From sequence record PZ179885.1: a stretch of DNA of 40,778 bases. One strand, written 5' to 3'. Numbering within the stretch: the stretch's first letter is position 1; each line of letters begins with the position of its first letter. This DNA is from a phage. The notes under the pieces are model-generated. The model saw nothing but the letters and a program-made list of their open reading frames with translations, was not told the origin of the DNA and did no database searches. Shown in pieces: positions 25,170-27,329 of this stretch. A program made the translations under genes and the position numbers.

Positions 25170-25192
25170 GACTAAACTATCACTATAGGGAG
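25170..25192 (+). promoter_or_regulatory. phage RNAP promoter (phi10-like, strong late), +1 G at 25187
   Basis: ACTAAACTATCACTATAGGGAGA; full GGGAGA initiating sequence; upstream of the major capsid gene. Confidence 0.9.
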
Positions 25193-25297
25193 ACCAAGAG
25201 AAAGACTCAAGGTTTTCCCCTATTACTTCAGTCCATACGGATTGGGCGTACAGTAAGTAATAAACTTTATCTTTCAATTGAATAGGAGAATTATCAT

Positions 25298-26341
25298 ATG
25301 GCAAACGTTCCGGGTCAGAAAATTGGTACAGACCAAGGTAAAGGCAAATCTGGTTCCGACGCTCTGGCGTTGTTCCTGAAGGTCTTTGCTGGTGAAGTCC
25401 TGACCGCATTCACTCGCCGCTCTGTAACTGCTGACAAGCATATTGTCCGTACCATTCAGAACGGTAAGTCTGCTCAGTTCCCGGTCATGGGTCGCACCTC
25501 TGGTGTGTATCTGGCTCCGGGTGAGCGACTGTCCGATAAGCGTAAAGGTATTAAACATACCGAGAAAGTGATTACCATTGATGGTCTGCTGACTGCCGAT
25601 GTGATGATTTTCGACATTGAAGACGCGATGAACCACTACGACGTGGCTGGCGAGTATTCCAACCAGTTGGGCGAAGCTCTGGCTATCGCTGCTGATGGTG
25701 CGGTGCTGGCTGAAATGGCTATCCTGTGTAACCTCCCGGCTGCATCCAACGAGAACATCGCTGGTCTGGGTACTGCGTCCGTACTGGAAGTTGGTAAGAA
25801 AGCTGACCTCGACACCCCGGCTAAACTTGGTGAAGCAATCATTGGTCAACTGACCATTGCTCGTGCGAAGCTGACCTCCAACTACGTTCCTGCTGGCGAC
25901 CGTTACTTCTACACCACGCCTGACAACTACTCTGCAATCCTCGCGGCTCTGATGCCGAACGCTGCTAACTATGCTGCGCTGATTGACCCAGAGACTGGTA
26001 ACATCCGTAACGTGATGGGCTTCGTTGTTGTTGAAGTTCCGCATCTTGTACAGGGTGGTGCTGGTGAGACCCGTGGTGCTGATGGTATCACTATCGCTTC
26101 CGGCCAGAAACACGCATTCCCGGCAACTGCTGGTGACGACGTTAAAGTTGCTATGGACAACGTTGTAGGTCTGTTCTCTCACCGTTCTGCTGTGGGTACT
26201 GTGAAGCTGCGTGACTTGGCGCTGGAACGTGACCGTGACGTCGATGCTCAGGGTGACCTGATTGTTGGTAAGTATGCTATGGGTCACGGTGGTCTGCGTC
26301 CTGAAGCGGCTGGCGCACTGGTTTTCAGCCCAGCGGCGTAA
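25298..26341 (+). CDS. 10A: major capsid protein 10A
   Basis: 347 aa; NQGKG, LALFLKVF, GKSAQFPV, HTEKVITIDGLLTADV, AALMPNAANYAALIDPE and AMGHGGLRPEAAGA match T7 gp10A. Confidence 0.98.
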   Translation: MANVPGQKIGTDQGKGKSGSDALALFLKVFAGEVLTAFTRRSVTADKHIVRTIQNGKSAQFPVMGRTSGVYLAPGERLSDKRKGIKHTEKVITIDGLLTADVMIFDIEDAMNHYDVAGEYSNQLGEALAIAADGAVLAEMAILCNLPAASNENIAGLGTASVLEVGKKADLDTPAKLGEAIIGQLTIARAKLTSNYVPAGDRYFYTTPDNYSAILAALMPNAANYAALIDPETGNIRNVMGFVVVEVPHLVQGGAGETRGADGITIASGQKHAFPATAGDDVKVAMDNVVGLFSHRSAVGTVKLRDLALERDRDVDAQGDLIVGKYAMGHGGLRPEAAGALVFSPAA

Positions 26342-26472
26342 GCACTTTTAGCCAACCTAACGTCGCTACAGTAGCGGCTGCACCTGAAGAGGAGACTCTA
26401 ACTCCTCAACAGAAAGCTGCGCGTACTCGTGCTGCGAACAGGGCCGCTAAACTGGCTGAGTCCAACAACTAA
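25298..26472 (+). CDS. 10B: minor capsid protein 10B, predicted -1 frameshift product
   Basis: G GTT TTC at 26320-26326, the same site I recall for T7; the -1 frame is open for about 49 codons and stops at 26470-26472 just before the terminator. Confidence 0.55.
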
Positions 26473-26476
26473 TTGA

Positions 26477-26516
26477 AACCCCTTGGGTGCCTTCGGGTGC
26501 TTGAGGGGTTTTTTGC
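26477..26516 (+). terminator. Tphi-like late terminator
   Basis: AACCCCTTGGGTGCCTTCGGGTGCTTGAGGGGTTTTTTGC; GC-rich hairpin plus T-run, resembling T7 Tphi. Confidence 0.85.
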
Positions 26517-26535
26517 TTAAAGTGAGAGGAGACTT

Positions 26536-27102
26536 ATGGCTCAATACATTCCACTGAATGCTAACGATGACTTAGACGCCATCAACGATATGTTAGCTGC
26601 TATCGGTGAACCAGCAGTCCTACAGCTTGACGAGGGGAACGCTGACGTCTCGAACGCTCAACGTATCCTGCATCGTGTCAATCGTCAGGTCCAAGCTAAA
26701 GGCTGGAACTTTAACATCAACGAAGCTGCTGTACTGACACCTGATGTCCAAGACAATAGGATTCGATTCCTGCCGTCATACCTTCGTGTAATGACCGCTG
26801 GGGCCACCAGCTACTACAGCAACATGGGTGGATACCTGTACGACCTGTCCACTCAGTCAACCACTTTCACCGACCCTATCACGGTAGAGCTTGTGGAGAT
26901 GAAGCCATTCTCCGAGATGCCTGTGGTCTTCAGGGACTACATCGTCACTAAAGCTAGCCGTGAGTTCAACGCTAAGTTCTTCGGTAGCCCAGAGTCAGAG
27001 CTATACCTTCGTGAGCAGGAAGCAGAACTCTATCAGCAGGTTATGGAGTACGAGATGGACACTGGTCGCTACAACATGATGTCTGACATCGGGAGGGACT
27101 AA
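26536..27102 (+). CDS. 11: tail tubular protein A (gene 11)
   Basis: 188 aa; similarity to T7 gp11 (GWNFNINE, VELVEMKPFSEMP, YIVTKASREFNAKFFG, EYEMD). Confidence 0.95.
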   Translation: MAQYIPLNANDDLDAINDMLAAIGEPAVLQLDEGNADVSNAQRILHRVNRQVQAKGWNFNINEAAVLTPDVQDNRIRFLPSYLRVMTAGATSYYSNMGGYLYDLSTQSTTFTDPITVELVEMKPFSEMPVVFRDYIVTKASREFNAKFFGSPESELYLREQEAELYQQVMEYEMDTGRYNMMSDIGRD

Positions 27103-27329
27103 TGGCTAGTCACAACCTGAAGATTCACCGCCAGCACTTTGGTCCGGTACAGCTAGGCCTAAAGACAGCAGAGCTGAGACTTAACGACCGGGACTTTAAG
27201 GTTGGCGACTGGCTTATCCTGAATGAGTGGGACAACGGGTATACTGGACAACAGGTAGCACGTAAGGTTGTCCACATTGCTAACGTTGGTGACATAGCTG
27301 AGGGATACGTCCTAATGAGTATGATTTAA
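27102..27329 (+). CDS. DUF3850-like (ASCH/PUA-like fold) protein inserted between genes 11 and 12
   Basis: 75 aa; HNLKIHRQHFGPVQLGLKTAELRLNDRDFKVGDWLILNEWD...YTGQ fits the DUF3850 pattern as I remember it; start overlaps the gene 11 stop (TAATG). Confidence 0.7.
   Translation: MASHNLKIHRQHFGPVQLGLKTAELRLNDRDFKVGDWLILNEWDNGYTGQQVARKVVHIANVGDIAEGYVLMSMI

Follow-up and report, generated by a model that had tools for sequence, protein, structure and literature searches.

The question raised by gene 10 of the phage recorded as PZ179885.1 is whether its capsid mRNA directs the synthesis of one protein or of two, that is, the major capsid protein 10A alone, or 10A together with a longer 10B produced by a programmed -1 ribosomal frameshift close to the 10A stop codon. 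In T7 the 10A/10B frameshift is said to go back to Dunn and Studier in 1983 and to Condron, Atkins and Gesteland in 1991; it has since those years (1983-1991) belonged to the textbooks, and 10B is considered dispensable. The stretch of DNA analysed here, hereafter the window, is the entire 40,778-nt sequence of the record. Its capsid region has 96-99% nucleotide identity to genomes of Kayfunavirus, the K1F-like genus of the Studiervirinae (Autographiviridae). Over a 25-kb stretch, the best-matching records cover about 90% of the window at 94-95% identity, and the phage is thus a distinct member of a well-sampled genus. All recognisable genes of this T7-like genome are carried on the + strand, and + strand open reading frames (ORFs) occupy 84% of the window.

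The features on which the analysis rests are collected in Table 1. The zero-frame product of gene 10A matches the Pfam family PF21703 (Gp10A-like) with an E value of 8e-105, and the capsid product of the window is 69% identical to T7 gp10 over 390 residues. The promoter upstream of gene 10 matches the K1F promoter consensus given in the annotation of phage ASO2B, where it occupies the equivalent place. Further downstream, between gene 11 and gene 12, there is a 75-aa ORF (27102-27329, + strand) whose homologues are labelled 'hypothetical' in most Kayfunavirus records and 'RNA-binding protein 11.05' in CR44b; T7 has no gene there.

Table 1. Features of the gene 10 cassette, with positions in the window unless a related locus is named.
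Feature	Position	Strand	Basis
Phage-RNA-polymerase promoter 5' of gene 10, K1F-type consensus ACTAAACTATCACTATAGGGAGA	25171..25193	+	Sequence read
Gene 10A, major capsid protein, zero-frame product, 347 aa	25298..26341	+	ORF list, Pfam, BLASTP
Overlap in which the shift must occur	26305..26341	+	-1 frame open after TGA 26302-26304; 10A stop 26339-26341
Slippery heptanucleotide G GTT TTC, predicted -1 tandem-slippage site, Val342-Phe343	26320..26326	+	Identical at homologous T7 codons
10B-specific -1-frame extension, 48 codons + TAA	26326..26472	+	Translation, BLASTP, same-length CDSs in CR44b and Penshu1
Candidate proximal hairpin (weak), 8-bp stem AGCGGCGU/ACGUCGCU, large loop	26332..26367	+	5 nt 3' of the heptamer
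Conserved tail motif LTPQQKAARTRAANR, basic, Ala-rich	26398..26442	+	Also in T7 10B and in five further Studiervirinae genera
Tphi-like intrinsic (T7-type) terminator, 17-bp hairpin 26475-26512 plus U tract, apical loop UUCG	26475..26517	+	
Two-tier hairpin in relatives	L086 442-494; L088; L090; L004 (T7 1187-1268)		

At the 3' end of gene 10A, where the zero frame ends in ...GALVFSPAA, the -1 frame becomes open at 26305 and not earlier, 11 codons ahead of the 10A stop, so that any shift is confined to the 37 nt from there to the end of the gene. The heptamer G GTT TTC is the sole slippery sequence within this interval, and its GTT is the sixth codon ahead of the 10A TAA. The original prediction had placed the heptamer six codons before that stop and had regarded the site as conserved with T7; its phase and coordinates proved to be exact, and the homologous Val-Phe codons of T7 carry an identical heptamer. 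By itself the heptamer is no evidence of frameshifting, because GGTTTTC is not enriched in the window, with two copies observed against 4.2 +/- 2.0 in shuffled sequences. The second copy (25211-25217) follows the promoter and precedes the start codon of gene 10, within the 5' untranslated leader, and, being non-coding, is irrelevant to frameshifting. Among the 45 + strand ORFs of the window, an in-frame nGTTTTC is found at this site only, and among all in-frame slippery heptamers of the window it is the one with the longest open -1 frame.

A ribosome that slipped here would read 48 sense codons, QPSGVSTFSQPNVATVAAAPEEETLTPQQKAARTRAANRAAKLAESNN, before terminating at TAA 26470-26472. The prediction of about 49 further -1 codons agrees with this count once the stop is included, and the peptide string is identical; its further statement that the frame ends just before the Tphi hairpin, as it does in T7, is likewise correct, the stem beginning at 26475. 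The full 10B coding sequence would be join(25298..26326, 26326..26472), of 1175 nt, yielding 391 aa, or 44 residues more than 10A, with a predicted junction that runs ...PEAAGALVF followed by QPSGVSTFSQPNVATVAAAPEEETLTPQQK. Computed masses are 36.2 kDa for 10A and 40.9 kDa for 10B; the expectation of a product about 5 kDa larger was therefore close, the computed difference being somewhat smaller at about 4.6 kDa. The tail itself is a short, low-complexity, basic peptide, and a Pfam search with the 391-aa 10B returned Gp10A-like only, with no domain match in the 48-aa tail.

An open -1 frame of this length is unusual for the window. Stop codons occur in the -1 frame of its genes at a rate of 0.093 per codon, from which the probability of 48 open codons is about 0.009, and only 0.3% of the -1 open runs observed in these genes reach 48 codons. 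There are nonetheless ways other than frameshifting in which such a frame might be read. Stand-alone small coding sequences are annotated in several relatives ('10B' in Yepe2, 'gp10b' in 285P and 'gp10B' in phiCFP-1), as though the extension were a separate small gene with its own start; yet no ATG, GTG or TTG is found in the -1 frame between 26305 and 26472, making an own start impossible, there is no ribosome-binding site ahead of the extension, the ORF list contains no + strand ORF of at least 20 aa over it, and in T7 and Kvp1 the 10A body carries the tail in covalent linkage. We accord a separate gene scarcely any probability. The chance that the coding strand is instead the opposite one is equally negligible: a 48-aa ORF beginning with TTG (26398-26544, - strand) is present in the mechanical ORF list, but it crosses both the terminator hairpin and the start of gene 11, the recognisable genes are all on the + strand, and the pattern of conservation described below fits the -1 frame of that strand. 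Independent initiation and the minus-strand ORF were accordingly both rejected, the one for want of a start codon and the other for crossing the terminator. Readthrough of the 10A stop was rejected also, given that the zero frame meets a TAG 10 codons past the TAA.

Frameshifting at the heptamer was evaluated across related phages in 80 capsid loci with an intact 3' end, comprising 78 IMG/VR relatives and GenBank records; loci that were cut short or had no anchor motif were left out. GGTTTTC is present in 32 of the 80, and in 31 of these 32 the -1 frame remains open for at least 42 codons past the 10A stop, the exception (L010) having a 1-nt deletion. The heptamer is invariant across the 32 loci and synonymous sites flanking it vary (GCA/GCG/GCT CTG). 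Where the Val-Phe pair is encoded as GTC TTC, GTA TTC, GTG TTC or GTC TTT, the -1 frames are mostly short; the longer ones among them run into the terminator or gene 11, or belong to a different slip site.

The deletion in L010 (at about position 2240 of the locus; IMGVR_UViG_2974615076_000001, 39300 bp, vB_EcoP_F/FFK3-like) removes one base from the 10A stop, TAA becoming T-AG, and puts a tail that is otherwise intact out of the -1 frame. This suggests either that the phage is naturally 10B-null, and hence that loss of 10B is possible, or that the record has a homopolymer sequencing error.

The -1 peptide was also compared across genera. The tail of the window was aligned with those of T7, K1F, another Kayfunavirus, three Berlinvirus, Elunavirus L1, Unyawovirus phiPccP-1, Helsettvirus fPS-85, Teetrevirus phiCFP-1 and two IMG/VR contigs, giving 13 sequences from 7 genera. 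The motif LTPxQKAARTRAANK occurs in all seven (Kayfunavirus, Teseptimavirus, Berlinvirus, Elunavirus, Unyawovirus, Helsettvirus and Teetrevirus), and the consensus tail end over all cassettes is LTP(Q/A)Q(K/E)AA(R/I)TRA(A/R)N(K/R). Within this 15-codon block, 6, 4 and 14 sites are variable at the first, second and third codon positions of the -1 frame respectively. Translated in the -1 frame, the 45 distinct codons of the block yield 20 amino acids, compared to 41 in each of the other two frames, both of which contain stops. Between the window and the non-Kayfunavirus sequences, pN is 0.03-0.15 and pS is 0.33-0.90. The block was chosen for its conserved -1 peptide, and the codon-position statistic is therefore inflated somewhat; despite this selection, the -1-frame coding signature of the aligned sequences is unambiguous.

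These comparisons bear on the sceptical view that the extension is a relic or accident and not expressed at all, positions 26342-26472 then being no more than a 3' untranslated region of the capsid mRNA that owes its conservation to demands on the RNA or DNA, such as mRNA stability or terminator context, with the heptamer a coincidence. Such a view could draw on the chance-level count of heptamers in the window, on a fold of 26327-26474 that is somewhat better than that of shuffled sequences (z = -1.9), and on the unusual invariance of the extension within Kayfunavirus even at -1-frame third positions (0.047, compared to 0.106 in 10A), which could hint at constraint at the nucleotide level. 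Across genera, however, third positions diverge freely and the -1 peptide is kept, a pattern that the other, stop-containing frames do not have; heptamer and open frame co-occur across the 80 loci; and in K1F, proteins fused to the terminus of the -1 frame are expressed and displayed. We consider a non-expressed extension extremely improbable.

The low diversity within Kayfunavirus deserves separate comment. Variation at -1-frame third positions of the extension (pi 0.047) is confined to 10 of 48 sites, which are small numbers, and the corresponding values are 0.106 for 10A and 0.177 for gene 11. This could reflect an additional nucleotide-level constraint or a cassette that has spread recently. 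The low synonymous diversity of the 131-nt extension could mark an undescribed RNA element, perhaps one acting together with the terminator.

The hairpin of the Tphi-like terminator is GC-rich, its 3' arm continues into the U tract, and it begins two bases after the -1 stop; a CCCC at 26479-26482 lies within it, approximately 150 nt 3' of the slippery site. Terminators are annotated at the equivalent place in EcoDS1, Penshu1 and ASO2B. Closer to the heptamer, the candidate hairpin at 26332-26367 is no more stable than shuffled sequences (z = 0.33), and among seven Kayfunavirus sequences it has no compensatory changes, only one-sided ones, with K1F breaking one pair. The fold of the whole extension (26327-26474) is not decisive when set against shuffles, and although a longer interval (26320-26525) reaches z = -3.4, it does so because the terminator drives it. 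An Rfam scan of 26200-26600 found no known RNA family, the one chance match below threshold being to NsiR1 over the terminator, at 16 bits against a gathering score of 39. Neither GGAG nor AGGA occurs within 30 nt 5' of 26320, and the two-tier hairpin of other genera is absent from the cassette of the window. No convincing stimulatory RNA was found adjoining the slippery site.

The two-tier hairpin is itself a feature of related phages, in which it starts 7 nt past the slippery heptamer of gene 10. It is found in Berlinvirus, Helsettvirus and Unyawovirus, and the inner helix also in T7 and Elunavirus. Compensatory changes affect 10 of its 18 pairs, and the observed values were reached in 0 of 500 shuffles; 90% of cells are paired, compared to 30-49% when the partners are slid. 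The 10A stop codon sits in its 5' arm.

We hold it to be rather unlikely that the Kayfunavirus cassette depends on a different stimulator from other T7-type cassettes and that the tail motif has a specific function that has gone unrecognised. As regards the motif alone, the 15-20-residue basic sequence LTPxQKAARTRAANKAxK is under purifying selection in at least seven genera, and it may have a specific function, for example in binding a surface or a nucleic acid.

Our preferred explanation is as follows. Most ribosomes on the capsid mRNA would stop at TAA 26339-26341 and release the 347-aa, 36.2-kDa 10A. In a minority, the P-site tRNA-Val (on GUU) and the A-site tRNA-Phe (on UUC) would slip back by one base, so that G GUU UUC is re-paired as GGU UUU, and translation would proceed through CAG and 47 further codons of the -1 frame. 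These shifted ribosomes would finish at TAA 26470-26472, directly 5' of the Tphi-like terminator, having made the 391-aa, 40.9-kDa 10B, a minor species that would co-assemble into the capsid and expose its basic, Ala-rich tail. P-site re-pairing from GUU to GGU is imperfect, and the efficiency is consequently not predictable from sequence; the 10B share in T7 is about 10% according to a secondary source. 10B is very probably made by -1 ribosomal slippage at 26320-26326, and the reading of the cassette as the Kayfunavirus version of the programmed -1 ribosomal frameshift in T7 gene 10 is well supported. That 10B is produced and incorporated in virions would follow by analogy with the K1F and T7 literature.

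The same protein would result if the phage RNA polymerase slipped on the run of four Ts and lost one U, or if a single tRNA slipped in the P site, and these mechanisms cannot be separated from tandem slippage by sequence alone. A four-T run is, however, far shorter than the homopolymer runs that give productive transcriptional slippage. Furthermore, it is the whole of GTTTTC(A) that is kept in relatives, in fixed phase with a preceding G, A or C, and not the T run alone, and T7 gene 10 is listed among the heptanucleotide sites where both tRNAs re-pair (Atkins 2016 review, PMC5009743). Both transcriptional slippage and single-tRNA slippage therefore seem very unlikely sources of 10B in comparison with slippage of both tRNAs.

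The frameshift is not new to the genus. Moller-Olsen et al. (2018) described a -1 frameshift in the 3' region of K1F gene10 that adds 44 triplets, equal to the difference between 391 and 347 residues in the window, and showed that GFP fused to the end of g10b in K1F gives stable fluorescent virions; later K1F work has displayed EGF, SpyTag and adhesins at the same end. The records of CR44b (RefSeq) and Penshu1 have a two-piece joined 10B coding sequence of 1175 nt, the same length as that ending at 26472 in the window, and the EcoDS1 record has a note on the slippery sequence. With the K1F frameshift published and the joined coding sequence annotated in CR44b and Penshu1, the finding is correct but already known.

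What is gained is chiefly annotation, and in the genome of the window the joined 391-aa 10B ought to be entered as a coding sequence. The extension is carried by 82 phage records, 75 of them at 99% identity or more (over 124 nt) and 81 at 95% or more, the weakest match being a partial one to Rahnella phage Sarma103 (90.9% over 53% of the query). Among the 60 of these 82 records that were listed, two annotate the extension as a coding sequence and one as a note, and both K1F records leave it unannotated; the 391-aa joined 10B is thus omitted by most records of the genus. Many records name the 347-aa ORF 'minor capsid protein'; this was discounted as an automatic label and not a frameshift annotation. 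The end of g10b is a natural and tolerated site for capsid display on K1F-like phages, and, the K1F frameshift having already been exploited experimentally, the site in the window opens no new question.

Other tails are found behind closely related capsid genes. In one set of Kayfunavirus relatives (L012, L014-L024, L075 and L076, at about 2223-2500 in each), 10A is 93-97% identical and both GGTTTTC and the terminator are kept, and the -1 frame encodes an unrelated extension of 86-89 aa (...SFNVSFTN) instead of the 48-aa T7-type tail. This longer extension has no Pfam match but is probably Ig-like. Homology is lost a few codons past the heptamer and returns at the last two codons, AAC TAA, and the tail thus behaves as a swappable cassette. 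Nine more distant relatives (L035, L036, L043, L049, L053, L054, L058, L063 and L067; 10A about 72-75% identical) have no GTTTTC; they have NNA AAG G directly before the capsid stop, followed in the -1 frame by one or two Big_2 domains. In a Pseudomonas-type relative the match of the tail to Big_2 has a Pfam E value of 4e-15, and the lysyl-type slip site (A AAG) is of the type described for T3 and phiYeO3-12. Finally, the environmental T7-like contig L047 (positions 1247-2466; IMGVR_UViG_3300034349_000001), and also L060, have G GTT TTT A at the capsid Val-Phe codons. In L047 no stop interrupts the -1 frame over at least 404 codons, after which the locus ends and cuts the ORF. Its product begins with Big_2 (Pfam E 5e-11) and continues with SGNH/GDSL-hydrolase motifs recognised by eye (FEGDSLT, HCGTNN, DGTHSN). 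As read from these motifs, L047 could display an enzyme on its capsid by way of the frameshift.

When set beside known systems, the window differs from cassettes of the dnaX type, which combine a Shine-Dalgarno-like stimulator about 10 nt 5' of the site with a stable stem-loop 5-6 nt 3' of it; the window has no such stimulator sequence, and its 3' hairpin at the matching spacing is no more stable than shuffled sequence. Ig-like capsid extensions made by frameshifting are attributed to T3-type and many other phages by Fraser et al. (2006), in so far as that work is cited in PMC5009743. The resemblance here lies in the relatives, since the very close Kayfunavirus phages reach their 86-89-aa domain via the same GGTTTTC and the Pseudomonas-type phages reach Big_2, whereas the tail of the window has no match to Big_2, I-set or similar Ig-like domains, and the lysyl-type A AAG sites of the T3-like and Pseudomonas-type phages are unused in it.

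The likeness to T7 is far closer. T7 gene 10 is placed by the same review (PMC5009743) in the X_XXY_YYZ type of heptanucleotide site, as G_GU U_UUC, with an unexplained long-range effect on its frameshifting in which the CCCC of the terminator is implicated. Both phages have a -1 extension with no start of its own, ending in a stop just 5' of a Tphi-type terminator with CCCC, and both have homologous tails (Q-SGV..., VAA-PEE, ETLTPxQxAARTRAAN). In a BLASTP alignment the fused 391-aa product is 69% identical to T7 10B, and the alignment crosses the junction and extends to residue 385 of 391. The two differ in tail length (56 codons in T7, 48 in the window) and in the middle of the tail, in the position of GTT (five codons before the stop in T7, six in the window), in the distance from heptamer to terminator (approximately 180 nt in T7 and 150 nt in the window), and in the hairpin 3' of the T7 site, which is absent from the window. 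In the T7-like phage Kvp1, production of 10B at TTTTCA has been proven by mass spectrometry. The closest counterparts are in the genus itself: annotated 10B proteins of CR44b and Penshu1 have the same heptamer and the same 391-aa product, as does K1F, with its 44 added codons, a cassette 97-100% identical to that of the window, and, in DQ111067, a single tail residue that differs, A versus D.
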